Shown piece after piece: positions 913 to 48,647 of a DNA stretch of 64,000 nt. Location: the NCBI GenBank assembly GCA_050950825.1, contig JBMNIH010000006.1, forward strand, positions 128,001 to 192,000, in the 5' to 3' direction. Under the pieces are notes generated by a model. The model saw nothing but the letters and a program-made list of their open reading frames with translations. It made no database searches and was not told the origin of the DNA. A program made the position numbers and the translations under genes. Each line of letters opens with the position of its first letter. Within the stretch, counting starts at the first letter, position 1. This stretch comes from Clostridia bacterium. GTDB lineage: Bacteria; Bacillota; Clostridia; JAAYHZ01.

Positions 913-1812
913 ATGTTTATTGACATTCACGCCCATGCCTATCGTAAGCCGGTTCCTTTTGTCGTGAAATTCTGTTCGGCGGAAGAACTGATTCAAACCT
1001 ATGATAAATTGGGAATTGAAAAAGGGGTTTTGCTTCCGATTGTCAGCCCTGAAATCTATTTCCCGCAAGCGAACGAAGATATTTTGGATATGGCGGAGCG
1101 GTATCCGGACCGGTTCATACCTTTTTGCAACGTGGATCCGAGAGCGTTGACCAATTCTCCGGAAGCCCCGTTGGACAAGGTCTTGTCCTATTACAAGGAA
1201 CGAGGCTGCAAAGGGATCGGCGAAGTCATGCCCAATTTGCCGGTGATGCACCCTATGGTGCAAAACCTGTTCCGACATGCGGAAAAAGTAGGGCTTCCCG
1301 TAATCTTCGACGGATCGGACCAGCTGACGGGAGATTTCGGGCTTTATGACGATCCCGGATTGCCGCAGCTAGAGCATACCCTGCAGCGATTTCCCAATTT
1401 GATTCTCTTCGGACACGGACCTTTATTCTGGTCGGAAATCGGAAGATTGGAGACGCCGGGAGAACGGTGCATTATCTTCAACCTCAAAGGCCATCAAGTG
1501 GGAAGGCTTCCCGAGGGTCCCATAAAGGAAGAAGGGGTCGTGCCGAAGCTGTTTCGAAGATATCCGAATCTCTACGGGGATTTGTCCGACTATACCGCGT
1601 ACAATGCCATTGCGAGAGACCCGGAATACGGCCCGAAATTCTTAACGGAATTCCAGGATCGGCTGTTCTTCGGAACGGATATGTGTTTTCCGGATATGCC
1701 GGTGCCTTTGATTGATTTGCTGAAGAGGTGGAGGGATGAAGGGAAAATCGGCGAGACGGTATTTTACAAGATCGCAAGAGGCAATGCGGAAAAATTGCTA
1801 GGGTTGATATAG
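913..1812 (+). CDS. Amidohydrolase family (amidohydro_2-type) metal-dependent hydrolase
   Basis: N-terminal IDIHAH, KGIGE, LYGDLS, LFFGTD, GNAEKLL; RBS AGGAGG before ATG 913. Confidence 0.85.
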   Translation: MFIDIHAHAYRKPVPFVVKFCSAEELIQTYDKLGIEKGVLLPIVSPEIYFPQANEDILDMAERYPDRFIPFCNVDPRALTNSPEAPLDKVLSYYKERGCKGIGEVMPNLPVMHPMVQNLFRHAEKVGLPVIFDGSDQLTGDFGLYDDPGLPQLEHTLQRFPNLILFGHGPLFWSEIGRLETPGERCIIFNLKGHQVGRLPEGPIKEEGVVPKLFRRYPNLYGDLSDYTAYNAIARDPEYGPKFLTEFQDRLFFGTDMCFPDMPVPLIDLLKRWRDEGKIGETVFYKIARGNAEKLLGLI

Positions 1813-1862
1813 AAAAAACCCCGATGACGGTAAAGAAAAATGTCGTCGGGGTCTTGTTTTTT
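1813..1862. terminator. Probable bidirectional intrinsic terminator
   Basis: ACCCCGATGAC...GTCGTCGGGGT stem flanked by A and T runs, between convergent genes. Confidence 0.75.
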
Positions 1863-2934
1863 AAAAGCTATCGATAATGCTTTTGTCCAAGTTTTTAACA
1901 ATGGCTACGGCCCATCGTACCGCTTCCACGTAATCCTTGTACGAGGAATAGTTGTAGTGGGTATGGGCGTAACGAACCGGAATACCGATTACGATAACGG
2001 GAATACCCGTGTTGGCCAAGTGAATGGCGCCGGCATTGGTACCGCCGCTTTCTCGAACCGCGTCTTGGAATACGATATTTTCTTTTTGAGCAATTTCCCT
2101 TGCAAATTTTACAAAGCGAGGATTGGAGATCATGGAAGGATCTCGGTGCCTTATCTGAGGACCTTTTCCCATGGACCCTTGCGCTATGGACGGGTCCGTA
2201 AATCCGTCGTCGGAAGGAGTGCCCTCAAAAACGATCGCCACATCCGGGTTTACGGTTCGAGCGGCAACTTGCGCACCTCTTAATCCCACTTCTTCTTGGG
2301 CCGTCAAGCAGCCTGCCAAATCCACCGAAAGCTCCGCATCTTGAAGCTGCATTAATGTGTCGATAACGCAAGCACAGCCGAGGCGGTCGTCAAAGGCCTT
2401 TCCCATCATCACGTTATTCACGGGATTGAATTCGAATGTAACGTCCGGAACTACGGGAGCACCGAGTTCGATTTTGAATTGATTCACTATTTCGTCCTTG
2501 CTTGTCGCTCCCACGTCGATGACCATATTGTTTATTTCAATTACCGTATTTTTATCCGAAGCGTTCATAAAATGAGGCGGTTTCGATGCCACAACCCCGC
2601 TTACGTAAACACCGTCGGCATTTCTTACTCGAACCTTATGGGCGCCTACGTTTTGCGAAAACCAGCCGCCGATGGGAAGGAATTTTAATGTACCGTCGCT
2701 TTTAATGGATTGGACCATAAAGCCGACTTCGTCGGAATGCCCGTCCAGCATAACGACCGGTCGATTCCCTTTATTGTTTTTCGGGTAGATGTATAGGTTT
2801 CGGATGGAATCTTCTTTCACATCCATGGAATTTCCTATATATTTTCTTGCCGTCTCCGACACTTGGTCTTCAAATCCCGAAATACCGTTGGCATTGCTTA
2901 AATCTTCGATGAGACGTAACGAATCCATATTCAT
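1861..2934 (-). CDS. M42 family metallo-aminopeptidase
   Basis: GISGFE, LDGHSDEVG, GKAFDDRLGC, QEEVGLRGA, RYAHT motifs. Confidence 0.92.
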   Translation of the reverse strand: MNMDSLRLIEDLSNANGISGFEDQVSETARKYIGNSMDVKEDSIRNLYIYPKNNKGNRPVVMLDGHSDEVGFMVQSIKSDGTLKFLPIGGWFSQNVGAHKVRVRNADGVYVSGVVASKPPHFMNASDKNTVIEINNMVIDVGATSKDEIVNQFKIELGAPVVPDVTFEFNPVNNVMMGKAFDDRLGCACVIDTLMQLQDAELSVDLAGCLTAQEEVGLRGAQVAARTVNPDVAIVFEGTPSDDGFTDPSIAQGSMGKGPQIRHRDPSMISNPRFVKFAREIAQKENIVFQDAVRESGGTNAGAIHLANTGIPVIVIGIPVRYAHTHYNYSSYKDYVEAVRWAVAIVKNLDKSIIDSF

Positions 2935-3136
2935 ATGCTACCTCCCGGGAATGGAACTGTAATTGATTCTTTCTCATTATATCCCTATTTCCAAGAAAGT
3001 AAAAGCCGTTTTCAGCGGCTTTCGATCATGAAAATTGGCAACGGTATGATTAAAAAAGGGTTCTTTTGCACAACATATTGAAAGAATAACGAAAATAGGC
3101 AGGATAGAACCGTTTTGCAAAAAGGAGGACTTGTAA

Positions 3137-6100
3137 ATGCCTAAAAAAATGAAAATGATGGACGGGAACATGGCCGCTTCCCATGTTTCCTATGCCTTTA
3201 CCGAGGTTGCGGGGATCTATCCCATCACTCCTTCGTCCCCTATGGCGGAGACGGTGGACGAATGGGCGGCGGAAGGCCGAAAAAACATATTCGGACAGCC
3301 GGTCAAGGTCATCGAAATGCAGTCGGAAGCGGGAGCGGCCGGGGTGGTACACGGCTCTCTTGCCGCAGGCGCTCTTACCACCACCTATACCGCATCCCAA
3401 GGGCTGCTTTTAATGATTCCCAATATGTATAAAATAGCGGGGGAGCTTTTACCCGGTGTTTTTCATGTCAGTGCTCGGGCGCTTGCTTCCCATGCGTTGT
3501 CCATATTCGGAGACCACCAGGATGTTATGGCCTGCAGAGAAACCGGGGTGACCATGCTGGCCTCCTCCAACGTGCAGGAGGTCATGGACTTAGGCGCCGT
3601 CGCCCATTTGGCGGCCATATCGTCAAGTATTCCGGTTTTACACTTTTTTGACGGATTCCGAACATCCCACGAATACCAAAAAATCGAGCCCTTGAATTAC
3701 GAGGATTTGGCTCGTTTGGTCGATTATGAAGCCCTTGAAAGATTCCGAAGCCGCTCATTAAATCCCAATCGGCCGATATTGAGAGGGACGGCGCAAAATC
3801 CGGATATCTTCTTCCAGAATCGTGAGGCTTCCAATCGGATTTATGAAAAAGTACCGGATACGGTTTTAAGGTATATGCAGGAAATCAATAAACTAACCGG
3901 ACGCGATTACAAGCCTTTCAACTATTACGGTGCCGAGGATGCGGAATATGTCATCGTAGCCATGGGTTCGGTATGCGATACCATACAAGAGACCGTAGAC
4001 TATTTAAACGAACAAGGAGAAAAAACCGGGGCTATCTTCGTTCATTTGTACCGCCCCTTCCATGCTCCGTTTTTCTTTGACGTGCTGCCGAAAACGGTAA
4101 AGAGAATCGCCGTTTTGGATCGAACCAAAGAGCCCGGAGCCCCCGGAGAGCCCTTGTATTTGGATGTGGTGAGTTTGTTTTATCAAGTCGAAAACAAACC
4201 GGAGATTTTTCGAGGACGCTACGGTTTAGGCTCGAAGGACACACGACCTTCCCAAATTGTTGCCGTATTTGAAAACCTGAAAAAAGACACGCCCAAGGAC
4301 GGGTTCACTATCGGTATTGTCGATGATGTCACCTTTACCTCTTTGGAAGAAAAGGAGGATATCGAAACCACGCCGAAAGGAACGGTCAGCTGTAAATTCT
4401 GGGGATTGGGCTCCGACGGAACCGTAGGTGCCAACAAAACGGCGGTGAAGATTATCGGGGACAAGACGGACCTTTACGCCCAAGCTTATTTCTCCTATGA
4501 CAGCAAAAAGTCCGGAGGGTCCACGGTCTCCCATTTGCGTTTCGGTCCGAAGCCCTTGCGGTCCCCCTATTTGGTATACAACGCCGATTATATCGCTTGC
4601 CACAATCCGTCCTTTGTCAATCAAATGGATTTGGTGAAAGGCTTGAAAAAGAACGGCACCTTCGTTTTGAATTGTCCTTGGACGGTTTCCGAGCTGGAAG
4701 AAAAGCTTCCCGCCTCCTTGAAAAGATACTTGGCACGGAACAACATCCAATTTCATATCATCGATGCCATCTCCATTGCGGGAGAAGTGGGGCTGGGGAA
4801 TCGAATCAATATGGTGATGCAGAGCGTTTTCTTTAAGCTTGCCAATGTGATCCCCACGGATCAAGCCATCGCCTACTTGAAAGAGTCGGTAGAGCAGATG
4901 TACGGAAGCAAAGGCGAAAAAATCGTTCAAATGAATATCCAAGCCATCGACCGATCCTTGGAAAGACTCTACAAAGTGACGGTTCCGGAGGAATGGGCTT
5001 ATGCAGAGGATCCGCCAAAAGAAGAAAAAGAGGAGCCGGAATTCATTAAGAAAATTGCTCGGCCTATGGCAAGACACGAAGGAGACGAGCTTCCGGTCAG
5101 TGCCTTCATCGGAATGGAGGACGGAAGCTTCCCCACAGGAACCACTTCATACGAAAAAAGAGGAATCGCGGTGTTTATACCCGAGTGGCAAATCGACAAT
5201 TGCATCCAATGTAACCAATGCGCCTACATTTGTCCTCACGCCGTCATACGACCTCTTCTTTTGACCCAAGAGGAAAACGACCGGGCGCCGGAAGGATTTT
5301 TGACGCTGAAGGGCAAAGGAAAGGGCTTGGACTCATACTATTACCGCATTCAAATCAGCCCCTTGGACTGCACCGGATGCGGTAACTGTGCCGATATTTG
5401 CCCGGCTCCGACGAAAGCCTTGATCATGAAAGACGCGGAAGAACAAATCCGAAAGCAAGCGGACCTTTGGGAATACGGGCTGAAGGTAACGGAGAAAACG
5501 GGAGTCGTTCCCGTTCATACGGTAAAGGGCAGCCAGTTCTCAAGACCCTTGTTCGAGTTTCACGGCGCTTGCCCCGGATGCGGCGAAACCCCGTATATTA
5601 AGCTTATTACCCAGTTGTTCGGAGACCGTATGATCATCGCCAATGCCACCGGCTGCTCTTCCATCTACGGAGGAAGCGCACCCTCCATTCCCTATACGGT
5701 CAACAAGCAGGGGAAAGGCCCCGCATGGGGGAACTCCTTGTTTGAAGACAATGCGGAATACGGCTACGGTATGTTCTTAGGTACGAAGGCTTTAAGAGAG
5801 CGTATCGCGGATCTTATGGAAAAAGCCATCGAAGAAGGGACGGAAAGCGCTGTCGCCGAAGTTTTCCGCGAATGGATCGAAAACATGGATGACGGAGAAG
5901 AAACAAAACGACTGGCCCCGAAAATCTTAAGCATATTGGAGGATCCTTCCGAATCCGATCGTGAAACCTTCCGAGAGATTTATAAACTGAAGGATTACTT
6001 GATCAAACCCTCCCCGTGGATTATCGGCGGAGACGGTTGGGCTTACGATATCGGATACGGAGGGTTGGACCACGTTTTGGCGACGGGAGACGACGTAAAC

Positions 6101-12388: not shown

Positions 12389-12532
12389 ACAGCACCAACT
12401 CCTTTCCAAGATTTACAGTATTGTAGGAAAGGATAAACATAAAAGTCAAATATATTTTTTAAGTCAAATCCAAATTAGTGTGTAAATTACCTCGGCATTT
12501 TAAATGTAGCAATCAGCCTATGGTCGCAAGCG

Positions 12533-12694
12533 TTTATGCCGCGAAAGCTGTTGACAATGAGTTACATGGCATGTTAGGCTGATAGCCGGGCATCATCCAC
12601 CTTCTATGAAGCCCATCCCTGTTACTGTGGGGGATGGCCCCGATGCCGGAAAACATGCCATGAGAGGCTCGTTGTCAACAGACCGTGGAATAAA
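12533..12694 (+). other. ssoA-like (single-strand origin / ssDNA promoter) hairpin, copy A, inside IS256
   Basis: RS_B-like TTTATGCCGCGAAAG, TTGACA (12551) in a stem, TG-extended TAGGCT (12575), closing CCGTGGAATAAA; homologous copy at 46777-46940. Confidence 0.6.
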
Positions 12695-12701
12695 TGCGAT
12701 C

Positions 12702-13913
12702 TTAGGCAGCAGTACCGGACTTCGAATCGTTCTCTTTCCGCATCTGGTAATACAACTGCATATTGAAATATTTGTGTCCTGTTTGCCACTTTTCATGCTG
12801 TTCCATTAATAAAGCACCCATAAGCCGTATGGCTGATGATGCATTGGGAAAGATTCGAATAACCCGTTCACGACGACGAATTTCCTGGTTGAGTCTTTCC
12901 ACACTATTTGTAGTACGAAGCCGTTTTCGATACCTTAAGGGCAGGGCCAGAACAGCAGTGATATCGTCAAATGCCTCGTCCAGAATAGCCGTGGCTTTCG
13001 GCGCCTTGGCTTCATAATTTTGGATTATCCCATCTCTGATGTTACGAGCACTCTCAAGGTCAACGGCCTCATAAAGCCGGCGTAGCTCTTCTTTAATTTC
13101 AGGTTGCAGCGCCTTCGGTGTATGATCCAAAATGTTCTTGGAAAAGTGTGTTTGACAGCGTTGCCAACCAGCGCCTTGAAAGTGCCTTCTAACAGCTTTG
13201 ACCAACCCTTTATGGTCGTCAGAGGTAACCAAATCAACATTCTTTAGCCCTCTTTCTTTAAGAGAGGAAAAGAATTCACCCCAGCTGCTTTCGGATTCAC
13301 TGTTGGCTAATTGAAACCCTATGATTTCGCGATAGCCTTCCTCATTCACTGCAGTGGCTATCAACAAACCACTTGATTGTACGCGACCATTTTCCCGCAC
13401 ATTTACAAAGATGGCATCCACTATGAGAAAGGGATAGTGGCACTGCAGAGGACGAGTTCTAAAAGCCTCCACGATGGGATCTAACTTCTTGCAAAGATCT
13501 GAGACAGTGGATCTTGAGAACTTCTTCCCGCATAGTTCCTCGGTTATTAATTCCACTTTTCGAGTGGAAACACCATTGACTACCATCTCCATCATTGCCA
13601 ACACCAATGCTTGTTCACTGCGCTGATATCGGGCAAATAACTCTGTGGAGAACTGCCCGTTGCGGTGTCTGGGAATGCGCAGGGTAAGTGTACCTACTCG
13701 AGTAGTTAACTGTCTATCTCGATATCCATTGCGGTATGCGGTTCTTTCTTCGGATCGCTCGTAGGGGTCGGCCTTCAATTGCTCTGAAGACTGGGCTAAA
13801 AGAACCTGGTTAAATATTTCTTCCAATAATTTGGCAAACGCTTCATCCTTGCCATTTGATAAAAATAATCCGTGCAAAAGTTCTCCGCTTATAGTAATAT
13901 TAAATTGAGTCAT
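12702..13913 (-). CDS. IS256-family (Mutator-type DDE) transposase
   Basis: RNGYRDR, IPRHRNG, GVSTRK, LIVDA, VTSDDHKGL, WQRCQTHF, RTTNSVERLNQEIRRR. Confidence 0.97.
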   Translation of the reverse strand: MTQFNITISGELLHGLFLSNGKDEAFAKLLEEIFNQVLLAQSSEQLKADPYERSEERTAYRNGYRDRQLTTRVGTLTLRIPRHRNGQFSTELFARYQRSEQALVLAMMEMVVNGVSTRKVELITEELCGKKFSRSTVSDLCKKLDPIVEAFRTRPLQCHYPFLIVDAIFVNVRENGRVQSSGLLIATAVNEEGYREIIGFQLANSESESSWGEFFSSLKERGLKNVDLVTSDDHKGLVKAVRRHFQGAGWQRCQTHFSKNILDHTPKALQPEIKEELRRLYEAVDLESARNIRDGIIQNYEAKAPKATAILDEAFDDITAVLALPLRYRKRLRTTNSVERLNQEIRRRERVIRIFPNASSAIRLMGALLMEQHEKWQTGHKYFNMQLYYQMRKENDSKSGTAA

Positions 13914-14032
13914 TGCTCATCCCTCCTCGGGTTTGTTTTTTAGTAATTTATATTCTAACCGAGGCATGAGCTTTGGCTCAACTTCTTTTTACACCATTAT
14001 ATAGACTTAATCTATTTTTTATAAATTTAGTT

Positions 14033-46519: not shown

Positions 46520-46591
46520 TTTTATAACCGGCTCTCTATGGCTTAAATTAAATATTGTTTTATATCTTCAATTATTGTAGATGATATTCCG
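46520..46591 (+). repeat. 72-bp direct repeat, copy 1
   Basis: TTTTATAACCGGCTCTC...GATGATATTCCG, identical to 48576-48647. Confidence 0.95.
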
Positions 46592-46776
46592 GATAGCGTC
46601 AATATACATTCGGAAATAAAAAGAGAGAGTTCACCCTTATGATAAGATTAAATCTTGTCTGTATCATATATCATTTCCATCAATTTTTCCACATTTGTTT
46701 TTTTAATTGATTATTACACATCACCCCTATTCAAGAATTCATGAAGACAATAGCAAATGCACAAGTAAAGTACTCA

Positions 46777-46940
46777 TTTATTCCACGGTTCGCTTTACGA
46801 CGAGCCTCTGCCGGCATGTTTAGTGGCCTCTGCGGCATCTTCCTACAGGGTGAAGCCGGATACGGCTTTGTGTGTTTGATGCCAGGCAGACAAGCCTAAC
46901 ATGCCGTCTACTCATCGTAAAGCGACTTTCGCGGCATAAA
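46777..46940 (-). other. ssoA-like hairpin, copy B, inside the ISLre2 element
   Basis: Minus strand TTTATGCCGCGAAAG...TTTACG-17-TAGGCT...ACCGTGGAATAAA; stems covary with copy A. Confidence 0.6.
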
Positions 46941-46983
46941 GCCTACCGTCACACGGTTACAAAGTCATAGCGGTTCAAGCTGC

Positions 46984-48468
46984 TTATGCGTCCCAAGCCA
47001 GTGTGGTCATATTCTTTAGCCACTTCATACTGCTCCTTTCCAAACCATGTATGTGACGTCTGGTATCTTCCGCATACGTCCATTTTGAATGTCTTCTTCT
47101 CAGATCTCTTATCAATTCTTCTTGTGCTTCACGCCTTTCCTTTTGCTTTTTTCGTTGTTTTTGATATTTTAGCAAGTCAAGAATCTTACCGCCGTTTCTT
47201 TTGTACGCTCTGAGCCTTGCCATGCGGTCGCAACCCAATTCGCTCCATCCCATTGGTCTGCTGCTCATTCTTGCCGACAATACATGGCTTATTTGCCCTT
47301 CTATGCAATATGTCCAGCCGCTTGTTTCTTCCACTCGGGTTTTTATCCCTTGCCAATGATTTAGAAAATATCTTAACGCATCTTCCACTTCTTGCTTCTT
47401 GTTTTCACTTTCCGTAACCTTCAGGATCTGCTCATAGATATTCTTCAATTCCTTTTTGTCCAAACGATTCAAGGCTCCCCAAATCCAGTCTTTCACCTCG
47501 TCCGCGCTATCGTAAAGATGCGCCACTGACCTGTTTATATATTTCATCATATGGTATTTATCAAGGACATATTTGCTGTTCTCCAAATATTCGCATCCTT
47601 TTTTTATCCACGAAGCTCCGTCTCCGACTACGTATATTCTCTCAAGATAGTCCGTATCGTATGTTTTTTCTATGTATTCGGCAACCTCCATCCAAAGCTT
47701 TTCGTTGCCTTTGCCACCCTCGTAAATACCGCAAAAGTATTTTTTTCCGATCAGCTTATATCTGGGATTCTTGGATGCTTCCCCCGATTCATTGATAATA
47801 TCCTCGAATACACAAACAAGCTTAGGCATCAGGGTATTAATCTTATGGCCCCTCGCATCTCGCTTCAAATCGCCCTTTTCATTCCAAAACTGTGCCGCCA
47901 CATGATCTTCATCGGCTATGACATGAAGCCTTTTTATCTTCTTCTTTCCTTCCGGTTCCGGCATCGGCATGTCCGCCTCAATCTCATGTACCAGATCCAT
48001 CACGGCTTGTTTGCTAATGCCTTCTTCCGCTTTTATGCTTGCATTCTCTCCGCCTTTGCGGTAACTGCTGTCTATACTTTCTTCCAAGGCTCTCGCAGCT
48101 GCGCCTAGCGTTACCTTCTGGTGCGGTTCAAATCCGAGCACCTGATCCAAAAGATATACATACTCACCCGTTCCTTTCGCACAATATCCGGTTCGGCAGA
48201 ATTCAACCTTACCCATGACATCTACGATGGTTTTCTTTTTGTTCCTGTGCTCGACATTCCAATACTTTTTTCTCACGCTGCTTTCTCGTATATCGTTATC
48301 AGCTTTCTCGTACAAATCCACTATAAGGCTGACCGCTAACGTTGACGTAACTTTATTAACGAGTGCAGTCAAATCATCGGCATCTTTTTTACCTGCCAGA
48401 ATATCACCCATCATTTTTTCAATTTCGACTAACCCATTTTCAATAAAATGTAGTATACTTTTATACAT
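46984..48468 (-). CDS. ISLre2-family transposase (UPF0236)
   Basis: IADEDHV, GDGASWIK, LDKYH, YFLNHW, IEGQISHVLSARMSSRPMGWS; likely start MYKSI. Confidence 0.92.
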   Translation of the reverse strand: MYKSILHFIENGLVEIEKMMGDILAGKKDADDLTALVNKVTSTLAVSLIVDLYEKADNDIRESSVRKKYWNVEHRNKKKTIVDVMGKVEFCRTGYCAKGTGEYVYLLDQVLGFEPHQKVTLGAAARALEESIDSSYRKGGENASIKAEEGISKQAVMDLVHEIEADMPMPEPEGKKKIKRLHVIADEDHVAAQFWNEKGDLKRDARGHKINTLMPKLVCVFEDIINESGEASKNPRYKLIGKKYFCGIYEGGKGNEKLWMEVAEYIEKTYDTDYLERIYVVGDGASWIKKGCEYLENSKYVLDKYHMMKYINRSVAHLYDSADEVKDWIWGALNRLDKKELKNIYEQILKVTESENKKQEVEDALRYFLNHWQGIKTRVEETSGWTYCIEGQISHVLSARMSSRPMGWSELGCDRMARLRAYKRNGGKILDLLKYQKQRKKQKERREAQEELIRDLRRRHSKWTYAEDTRRHIHGLERSSMKWLKNMTTLAWDA

Positions 48469-48575
48469 AGAGGACACCTTCCTTTGTGATTTTTTGTATG
48501 GAAATTTAATCATATCACAATCGGGGTCCTCTTTCTATTTGTTATATTCTTCCATTGATTATTATCCGAAACTTA

Positions 48576-48647
48576 TTTTATAACCGGCTCTCTATGGCTT
48601 AAATTAAATATTGTTTTATATCTTCAATTATTGTAGATGATATTCCG
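48576..48647 (+). repeat. 72-bp direct repeat, copy 2 (with the native promoter TTTACA-17-TACAAT on the minus strand)
   Basis: Identical to 46520-46591. Confidence 0.95.

Follow-up and report, generated by a model that had tools for sequence, protein, structure and literature searches.

Hairpins of the plasmid single-strand origin class inside insertion sequences of different families in a Clostridia genome

In rolling-circle plasmids of the pT181 and pE194 types, the single-strand origin (sso) known as ssoA or palA yields a 20-nt primer RNA, for which the CS-6 sequence acts as terminator. The hairpins described here resemble these origins and occur at two places, inside insertion sequences (ISs) of the IS256 and ISLre2 families, in a stretch of 64,000 nt from a Clostridia bacterium (GenBank assembly GCA_050950825.1, contig JBMNIH010000006.1, positions 128,001 to 192,000 of the forward strand); this whole stretch is referred to as the window, and its own numbering is used unless a contig or locus is named. 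As described in one account, ssoA is about 160 nt long, contains the RS_B sequence, forms its fold as a single strand and uses RNA polymerase for priming, and the ssoU, ssoT and ssoW origins also carry RS_B (PMC5703833); these last three, compared by description only, have RS_B in common with the IS hairpin. For ssoA-type origins, host RNA polymerase is described as taking the folded single strand for a promoter and making a short primer for the second strand (PMC4595007, PMC5703833). The annotation of a pT181-like plasmid gives RS_B as 5'-TTTATGCCGAGAAAA-3' and the CS-6 of the sso as TAGCGA, 53 nt further on (PMC6395029).

The nearest precedent in an element with a transposase is found in Mycoplasma integrative and conjugative elements (ICEs) that use a Mutator-like DDE transposase, in which the interval from the transposase gene to the terminal inverted repeat is described as containing a stretch of 70-286 nt that resembles the putative sso of a plasmid (PMC3942029), a position equivalent to that of the IS hairpin. 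A functional origin, sso1, is likewise described in the integrated element ICEBs1, where it is needed for second-strand synthesis (PMC4595007). Both are compared with the IS hairpin by description only: the Mycoplasma ICEs are large and conjugative and would be expected to pass through a single-stranded stage during transfer, and ICEBs1 is described as undergoing rolling-circle replication and conjugation, whereas the elements considered here are transposase-only ISs of 1.5-2 kb. Frpo-type promoters, found in the leading regions of conjugative plasmids, are hairpins that recreate a promoter on single-stranded DNA (ssDNA). Frpo drives early genes, whereas no transposase gene is read in sense from the promoter in the IS hairpin.

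The two window copies of the ssoA-like (RS_B-class) hairpin occupy 12,530-12,698 on the plus strand (copy 1) and 46,773-46,943 on the minus strand (copy 2), and score 187.7 and 142.1 bits, respectively, with the covariance model R1, which is described below; on its opposite strand copy 1 scores 49.6 bits. Each is an imperfect palindrome of about 165 nt that starts with the RS_B box TTTATGCCGCGAAAG at the 5' base of the hairpin (12,533-12,547 and 46,940-46,926) and ends with its 3' partner ACCGTGGAATAAA (12,682-12,694 and 46,789-46,777). A first-pass annotation of the window had listed TTTATGCCGCGAAAG, ATGAGT, GGCATGTTAGGCT, GGCATC...GATGCC, AAACATGCC, AGAGGCTCGT and ACCGTGGAATAAA as blocks shared by the two copies, and all of them are present in both. 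Between the copies the inner blocks do not differ, and changes in the outer stem are matched by compensating changes on the other arm; this variable stem, for which covariation had been proposed, was recovered as inverted repeats in both copies. Folded as ssDNA, both hairpins adopt the long rod that had been predicted as their common fold (-44.5 kcal/mol, z -6.85 for copy 1; -43.5 kcal/mol, z -6.98 for copy 2), and none of 200 shuffled sequences folds as well as either. A promoter-like element is present in the 5' arm of copy 1 (12,551-12,580, plus strand), with a -35 hexamer TTGACA at 12,551-12,556, an 18-nt spacer, a TG at 12,572-12,573 and a -10 hexamer TAGGCT at 12,575-12,580. Its counterpart in copy 2 (46,893-46,921, minus strand) has TTTACG at 46,921-46,916, a 17-nt spacer, TG at 46,901-46,900 and TAGGCT at 46,898-46,893, so that the spacings first reported are correct.

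Copy 1 lies in an IS256-family element designated type A, 1551 bp in length (12,462-14,012, minus strand), which is a repeated unit present in five full copies. It is flanked by a 9-bp target duplication, TATTTTTTA, at 12,453-12,461 and 14,013-14,021; an inverted-repeat search located its imperfect terminal inverted repeats at 12,466-12,486 and 13,988-14,008; and it encodes a Mutator-type DDE transposase of 403 aa (12,702-13,913, minus strand) that matches Pfam Transposase_mut (E 2.9e-132). The Pfam match, the inverted repeats and the duplication together place the element in the IS256 family. Copy 2 lies in an ISLre2-family element designated type B, of about 1996 bp (46,592-48,587, minus strand, with the extent taken from sister copies), whose transposase gene encodes 509 aa (46,984-48,513, minus strand); here the family is indicated by a match to the UPF0236 (p-MULT 3) type of transposase (E 5.1e-65) and by 9-bp duplications at three sister copies. 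The first hairpin is found 71 nt inside the end of its IS and is antisense to the transposase gene, and the second is found 185 nt inside the end, downstream of the gene and in the same orientation. The earlier description of the hairpin as lying 3' of the transposase therefore holds for both elements, but only the ISLre2 copy is co-oriented with its gene, the IS256 copy being on the opposite strand.

A search of the whole source genome (3.55 Mb, 11 contigs) detected 29 copies of the hairpin on eight of the contigs (C2, C3, C4, C6, C7, C8, C10 and C11), all of which contain TTTATGCCGCGAAAG; a nhmmer search with the alignment of IS copies returned the same 29 and no further diverged copy in the genome. 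Compared with copy 1, six copies are 99-100% identical, one 83%, three 82%, five 77%, one 72% and 13 71%. The last group is identical to copy 2, and the lone copy at 72% is preceded by another UPF0236 gene. An RS_B-like 13-mer, TTTATGCCGAGAA, also occurs at G000:C9:74952-74964 (G000 being this genome), but it is inside a 687-aa open reading frame (ORF) with no GGAATAAA partner within 260 nt, and is probably a chance occurrence.

Unit boundaries were obtained from an all-against-all comparison of the 4-kb flanks of the hairpin copies, and each hairpin group has a fixed place within its repeated unit. Relative to the hairpin, the unit runs from -71 to +1318 in the IS256 type A (about 1551 bp), from -1647 to +185 in the ISLre2 type B (about 1996 bp) and from -1594 to +134 in a third type, E (about 1893 bp), which is assigned to the IS3 family because it encodes HTH_Tnp_2 and HTH_21/rve proteins. 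Target duplications lie beyond the unit ends, of 8-9 bp at three IS256-A copies and 9 bp at three ISLre2-B copies. These boundaries bear on the idea that the hairpin is a target-site artefact, with ISs inserting beside such hairpins or promoters and the hairpin itself lying outside them. ISLre2 elements are indeed described as inserting upstream of sigma-A promoters (PMC3942029); however, the units extend 71, 185 and 134 nt past the hairpin (IS256, ISLre2 and IS3, respectively) to the same end point at unrelated sites, with the duplications located beyond that point. The unit boundaries and target duplications refute the artefact for this genome, and the probability left to it is negligible.

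Pfam searches of the whole genome, followed by measurement of hairpin-to-gene distances, provided a census of the families involved. The hairpin accompanies 10 of 17 Transposase_mut loci, always downstream and antisense (four fragment rows from two broken copies were merged), 14 of 20 UPF0236 loci, always downstream and sense, and five of 20 rve loci, downstream and sense (six rows were dropped, five as other below-cut-off matches and one as a fragment of a counted locus). None of the 15 DDE_Tnp_1 loci or the seven IS110 loci has it, and Pfam searches for ISL3, DDE_3 and TnpB found no match in the genome. Since 10, 14 and 5 account for all 29 copies, there is no free-standing hairpin in this genome, and the proposal that the same hairpin resides in ISs of different families is borne out by every copy (10 in IS256, 14 in ISLre2 and five in IS3 elements). 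The hairpin is thus placed in active ISs. The existence of 29 copies in six sequence groups, together with the strong covariation reported below, excludes a chance origin of the resemblance between hairpins.

The genome is a dense nest of ISs. IS256-A and ISLre2-B stand side by side twice, once 30 nt apart on contig C8 (G000:C8:54933-58507) and once on C2, where a truncated IS256-A abuts an ISLre2-B (G000:C2:38748-39254), and at C4:453503-455659 an IS256 type that has no sso is inserted into an IS3-E copy. In the ISLre2 copy of the window, the transposase-proximal end diverges from the other copies over its first ~12 nt, no target duplication is seen, and the 20-mer TTGAAGATATAAAACAATAT is present in both flanks (48,576-48,640 and 46,550-46,592). 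The diverged end, the missing duplication and the shared 20-mer suggest that this copy was inserted into, or recombined within, a local repeat.

The kinship with plasmid origins was evaluated with R1, a covariance model built from 10 aligned IS-borne copies and no plasmid sequence, with an RNAalifold consensus of 52 pairs, 10 of which show compensatory change. A search of pT181 and pE194 with filters off (8167 bases) gave one full-length match in each, on the plus strand only (34.2 bits, E 1.2e-7 in pT181; 30.7 bits, E 8.8e-7 in pE194). The next best match in either plasmid scored 8.4 bits, and the two ssoA regions were the sole significant matches. Both coincide with the sole TTTATGCCGNGAAA of each plasmid, a sequence present once in each of 30 of 31 loci tested, pE194 and pT181 included. 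Within pT181, TAGCGA is found at the published CS-6 offset from RS_B, and the sites in both plasmids agree with the RS_B/CS-6 layout described for pT181-type sso (PMC6395029). The two plasmid origin regions are 153-160 nt in length and end in TTGGAATAAA, after which pE194 continues with TGCGA, as does copy 1. By contrast with R1, a blastn search (word 11) with copy 1 found nothing among 72,556 plasmids at E up to 0.01. BLAST cannot pick up a resemblance to plasmid ssoA this short or this diverged, hence the need for the covariance model.

Homology to ssoA, as proposed in the first-pass annotation, is thus supported by a model that was derived from IS copies alone and yet recovers the ssoA of both plasmids, at one site and on one strand in each. 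Judged by sequence and predicted fold, the element is an RS_B-class single-strand origin whose nearest relative is the ssoA (palA) of pT181- and pE194-type rolling-circle plasmids. The two are alike in length (about 160 nt), in having RS_B at the 5' base paired with ...TGGAATAAA at the 3' end, in their long imperfect rod, in a -35/-10-like promoter in the 5' arm at equal offsets, and in the fact that only one strand scores. The plasmid ssDNA folds share the IS architecture in detail, with TTTAT/ATAAA, one bulged G, an RS_B helix of 4-5 bp, an internal loop and a long rod. The IS hairpin differs in residing in transposase-only ISs and not by a Rep gene, in lacking CS-6 in its window copies, and in its RS_B helix, which is CCGCG/CGTGG where the plasmids have CCGAG/ATTGG, a double change that keeps the pairing. 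It also has an invariant AGAGGCTC on the 3' arm (A1 columns 137-144; 12,663-12,670 and 46,808-46,801 in the window), which every IS copy shares with the RS_B-less relatives mentioned below, which is partly unpaired in the consensus fold, and which was not found in pT181 or pE194.

Support for the structure comes from an R1 alignment of 97 forward-strand matches, 95 of them distinct. Standard pairs fill 93.1% of paired cells, compared with 71.7% when partners are shuffled and 36-45% when partners are slid by 1-3 columns, and the covariation score is 0.505, compared with 0.153 and 0.04-0.08, respectively; these values come from an alignment fitted to R1, and the RS_B helix is invariant in part because 80 of the loci were picked by motif. 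Changes on both sides are seen in 40 of the 52 pairs, and none of 500 shuffles reaches any of these measures. The hairpin is therefore a selected structure. In the helix bearing the -35, 12 of 14 pairs have both-side changes, and the covarying helices take in the -35 hexamer together with sequence preceding it. These helices could not form in an RNA that begins at the stem promoter, because such an RNA would not include that sequence. That the 3' arm pairs with both the promoter and the sequence before it makes sense only for a molecule with both arms, namely ssDNA, and points to a biochemical action like that of ssoA.

The promoter itself is well preserved. At the expected offset, the combination of the TG, A2 and T6 of the -10 and a -35 that matches TTGACA at five or more of its six positions is present in 68 of 94 sequences; it was not seen in 50 shuffles, and on the opposite strand it was seen in only three of 93. 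The spacing between -35 and -10 is 16-18 nt in 93 of the 94, and the -10 is TAGGCT 61 times, with TAAAAT, TATAAT and others also present, such that TAnnnT is kept. A2 and T6 are the bases that sigma flips out. Both are unpaired in the consensus fold and their neighbors are paired, which is only a hint, as the single-sequence fold draws this region differently. The hairpin stem thus holds a strand-specific promoter signature, which by its sequence would be of the sigma-A kind. This promoter never faces the transposase gene in sense; it points away from the gene in ISLre2 and IS3 elements and runs antisense into it in IS256 elements. Gene expression from ssDNA, which the first-pass annotation had offered as an alternative function, is for this reason disfavored.

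It is also conceivable, though improbable, that the element works in duplex DNA or as RNA, either as a sigma-A promoter directed outward (ISLre2, IS3) or antisense (IS256), or as a structured 3' untranslated region or antisense RNA that controls the transposase. The -35 and TG-extended -10 would make a good duplex promoter, and the two insertions of a miniature inverted-repeat transposable element (MITE) described below aim the promoter into the next gene (tuf and malic-enzyme-like ORFs). The covarying helices, however, pair the -35 and RS_B with the 3' arm, and the 5' arm is missing from a transcript that begins at this promoter; for a read-through RNA no internal promoter would be needed. 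In addition, the orientation relative to the transposase gene varies by family, the nearest relatives are DNA origins of known function, and the hairpin matches no curated Rfam family, with no matches in the window at the gathering score and the element unmatched at E up to 1 at five loci each with one hairpin copy.

The element is present in contigs from RNA libraries, which might seem to favor an RNA function. The stretch is contained in 22 runs, 17 of them recorded as RNA and all kept as contigs, and at L089, a locus with both ISs, contigs from four metatranscriptome sets cover both ISs and the hairpin. Because contigs carry no strand, start or level, they neither support nor refute a hairpin RNA. 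They break at IS ends and at hairpin ends (600/601 and 769/770 of L089). Many contigs match the hairpin alone (L089:600-770, equivalent to G000:C8:54999-55169) at 95% identity or more, with unrelated sequence on both sides, which indicates that a near-identical module is present in other contexts in those communities.

Selection on the hairpin was assessed by comparing the IS256 lineages A, C and D. Their transposases are 77-86% identical, with third codon positions at 44-60%, and the hairpins are 81-86% identical, similar to first codon positions. As the hairpin is conserved far above third codon positions, it is under purifying selection inside the IS. This is difficult to reconcile with a neutral passenger, that is, a neighboring plasmid sso captured by extension of an IS end. 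ISs do capture flanking DNA, and only some lineages per family have the module; however, apart from the excess conservation, the pairing has been kept through changes on both sides, and the module is found with at least seven transposase families, always in the terminal non-coding region. Neutral carriage is accordingly considered very improbable.

Relatives in other genomes were identified by R1 scans of 150 other genomes of the same class and 150 genomes sampled across the phylum, with three genomes in both sets; 22 and 16 genomes, respectively, had matches. In the first sample (26 loci), the neighboring gene is Transposase_mut at L034, L041 and L047, with L033 added by near-identity to type C; UPF0236 at L036, L040, L044, L048 and L051; rve of the IS3 type at L037, L042, L043 and L052; DEDD_Tnp_IS110 at L035 and L060; DDE_3, of the IS630 type, at L056; an IS30-like protein with an HTH_38 domain only at L046; and a protein with only a helix-turn-helix at L050. 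No transposase was found at the remaining eight. The second sample (20 loci) includes IS3 (L061 and L072), IS256 (L062, L069 and L079), ISLre2 (L077), IS110 (L070, and L073 by eye) and IS21 IstA/IstB (L064) neighbors, a rolling-circle Rep_1 gene (L067), and a MITE of 372 bp at two sites in genome G280 (L063:1408-1779 and L078:1408-1779). The MITE copies are 98% identical, contain no gene and consist mostly of the hairpin, with terminal inverted repeats of ~12 bp (GTATCTCGTG.../...CACGAGATAC). Both are located just upstream of a gene, a tuf-like ORF in one case and a malic-enzyme-like ORF in the other, with the hairpin promoter facing it.

Two further observations concern individual relatives. 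At L061, in genome G283, which belongs to a different family of the phylum, two IS3-type proteins are 100% identical to those of type E, hairpin included, and this identity across families points to recent horizontal transfer of the IS. Shorter relatives at L072:1501-1613, L073:352-464 and L080:1501-1613 keep the -35/TG -10 stem and AGAGGCTC without the RS_B/GGAATAAA base; their flanks read ...CATTCATTTTACCCTTGACA, they adjoin IS3 and IS110 genes, and they may represent a second hairpin class.

A scan of 185,579 species genomes for the exact pattern of RS_B box and partner found more than 112 stretches, of which 80 loci were analyzed, with neighbors labeled by BLASTP to Pfam-labeled references, by clustering, and by Pfam searches of representatives. 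These 80 are mostly from Clostridia metagenome-assembled genomes (MAGs), along with three Bacillus or Peribacillus records and two MAGs labeled Bacteroidales. The neighbors among the 80 listed loci are IS256-like at 14 (12 antisense, two sense), IS3-like at four, ISLre2-like at two, IS110-like at one, IS30-like at two, and a 491-aa DDE protein with weak IS66/IS240 matches at three; one locus has a tyrosine integrase, and 33 have no mobile-element gene within 600 nt. Large serine recombinases are found at 18 of the 80 (two of 20 ORFs were checked by Pfam, the rest assigned by clustering), with the hairpin antisense and past the stop codon by 14-25 nt at 17 loci and by 122 nt at L096. One example is L122, where a ~500-aa protein with Resolvase, Recombinase and Zn_ribbon_recom domains (1594-3096) is followed by the hairpin at 3112-3270. 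At such loci an integrative or mobilizable element presumably ends at the hairpin. A BLASTP search of all neighboring ORFs against 10 DDE_Tnp_1 transposases of this genome produced no match, and a Pfam search of 88 leftover ORFs at the 80 listed loci gave, in the best 25 of 97 families, mostly housekeeping proteins and one more IstB_IS21. Finally, a Mob_Pre relaxase gene is followed after 34 nt by the hairpin at L104, as in pT181, and a 6.9-kb plasmid-like Bacillus contig (L091) has Rep_1, a relaxase and Rap. The family thus includes bona fide plasmid origins, by Rep_1 and Mob_Pre genes, which confirms its identity as an origin, and a large share of its members are inside transposase-only elements.

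The presence of the module in Rep_1 plasmids (L067, L091), in the Mob_Pre element and beside serine recombinases (18 of the 80 listed loci) is also what would be expected if it served horizontal spread. In that case it would speed second-strand synthesis when the carrier of the IS enters a cell or replicates as ssDNA, the carriers being conjugative or mobilizable elements, rolling-circle plasmids or transforming DNA, and survival of the IS would be favored. The functional sso described in ICEs (PMC4595007) and the sso-like stretch described between the DDE transposase gene and terminal repeat of Mycoplasma ICEs (PMC3942029) are consistent with this, and a carrier of the IS630 type fits a benefit that is independent of the transposition mechanism. 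However, all 29 copies in the present genome are in simple ISs, spread over eight of 11 contigs. Because an sso functions in a single orientation, only half of random IS insertions would benefit the carrier, and on a linear entering strand priming proceeds toward the 5' end of the template, so that the IS256 layout would copy 71 nt of the IS. The strong conservation within IS lineages also argues for a benefit tied to the IS. Horizontal spread is therefore unlikely to be the function, although it is the most serious of the alternatives.

The interpretation preferred here, which is probable by a modest measure, is that the hairpin is an RS_B-class single-strand origin, resident in ISs as a module, at which RNA polymerase primes second-strand synthesis on a single-stranded form of the IS. 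The hairpin-bearing strand, on becoming single-stranded, would fold to the ~165-nt rod, and the stem of the rod would recreate the sigma-A promoter, with its -35 and TG-extended -10, to which host RNA polymerase would bind. A short RNA would then be made and extended by DNA polymerases, copying the single strand to duplex. The substrate may be a single-stranded IS circle, which would arise if extension of the flanking 3'-OH displaced the circularised strand; such a circle would be the same substrate as the displaced strand of a rolling-circle plasmid, and the module would turn it into a double-stranded circle that integrates. It can be inferred that RNA polymerase primes at the IS hairpin and, more weakly, that the substrate is the copy-out intermediate.

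In the published description of copy-out, one transposon strand is circularised to a figure-eight, and replication then gives the duplex circle (PMC7780238). The IS256, ISLre2, IS3, IS110, IS21 and IS30-like carriers all belong to families that appear on a list of those with circular intermediates, presumed to use copy-out/paste-in (preprint 10.1101/2023.06.07.543989). The module occurs at both IS ends and in both orientations, which suits a circular template and not a linear one; on a linear strand, the IS256 arrangement would lead to copying of just 71 nt of the IS.

Several observations weigh against this interpretation. Neither window copy has CS-6 (TAGCGA/T), the one tested sequence feature of ssoA that the IS element lacks, nor do types A, B and E have it, the nearest sequences being TAGCGC in type C and CAGCGT in type D, in the apical part; the element is therefore designated ssoA-like, or RS_B class, and not strict ssoA. 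The same genome has seven of 17 IS256 loci, six of 20 ISLre2 loci, 15 of 20 rve loci and all seven IS110 loci without the hairpin, and with so many sister loci lacking it, the hairpin cannot be generally needed by these IS families. The IS630 family uses a cut-and-paste mechanism, and the occurrence of the hairpin by an IS630-type gene, by large serine recombinases and in a MITE implies that a copy-out-specific role is not required for its spread. In duplex DNA this -35/-10 pair might simply serve as a conventional promoter. In the copy-out model as accepted, the lagging strand is made by the normal fork (PMC7780238).

A broader proposal is put forward only tentatively, as it is rather less probable than the interpretation above. 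ISs of at least six families in Clostridia may have domesticated a plasmid-type single-strand origin for transposition, with the hairpin priming on the released single-stranded circle and the strand on which it lies marking the donor end. In the first strand transfer, the ISLre2 and IS3 types would then use their right end as donor, and the IS256 types their left end. The hairpin would amount to a portable "second-strand cassette", exchanged among ISs, MITEs, serine-recombinase elements and plasmids.

A single-strand origin in a simple IS was not found in the full-text literature searched, most subscription journals and the ISfinder notes being outside its coverage, and the earlier impression that there is no prior description thus agrees with this search, with a prior mention elsewhere being possible. 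The nearest precedent is the Mycoplasma ICE stretch mentioned above (PMC3942029), and an IS5-family insertion described near the sso of pGK12 is a different effect (PMC12016507). As an RS_B-class single-strand origin, the hairpin belongs to a known kind of element, and its setting, which is new, implies a new role. Copy-out/paste-in is described as the pathway of the majority of bacterial IS families (PMC7780238), and its replication step is its least understood part. If the preferred interpretation is correct, these ISs would not rely on the host fork alone, the single-stranded circle would be a real intermediate, and the hairpin would be a simple sequence marker of the transferred strand. 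If its function is instead in horizontal establishment, it would represent a new way for an IS to pay its carriers. The hairpin also offers a ready-made, host-matched sso for stable rolling-circle vectors in Clostridia that are hard to engineer, and a replication module that moves among plasmids, integrative elements, ISs and MITEs blurs the line between a "transposase-only" IS and a replicon.

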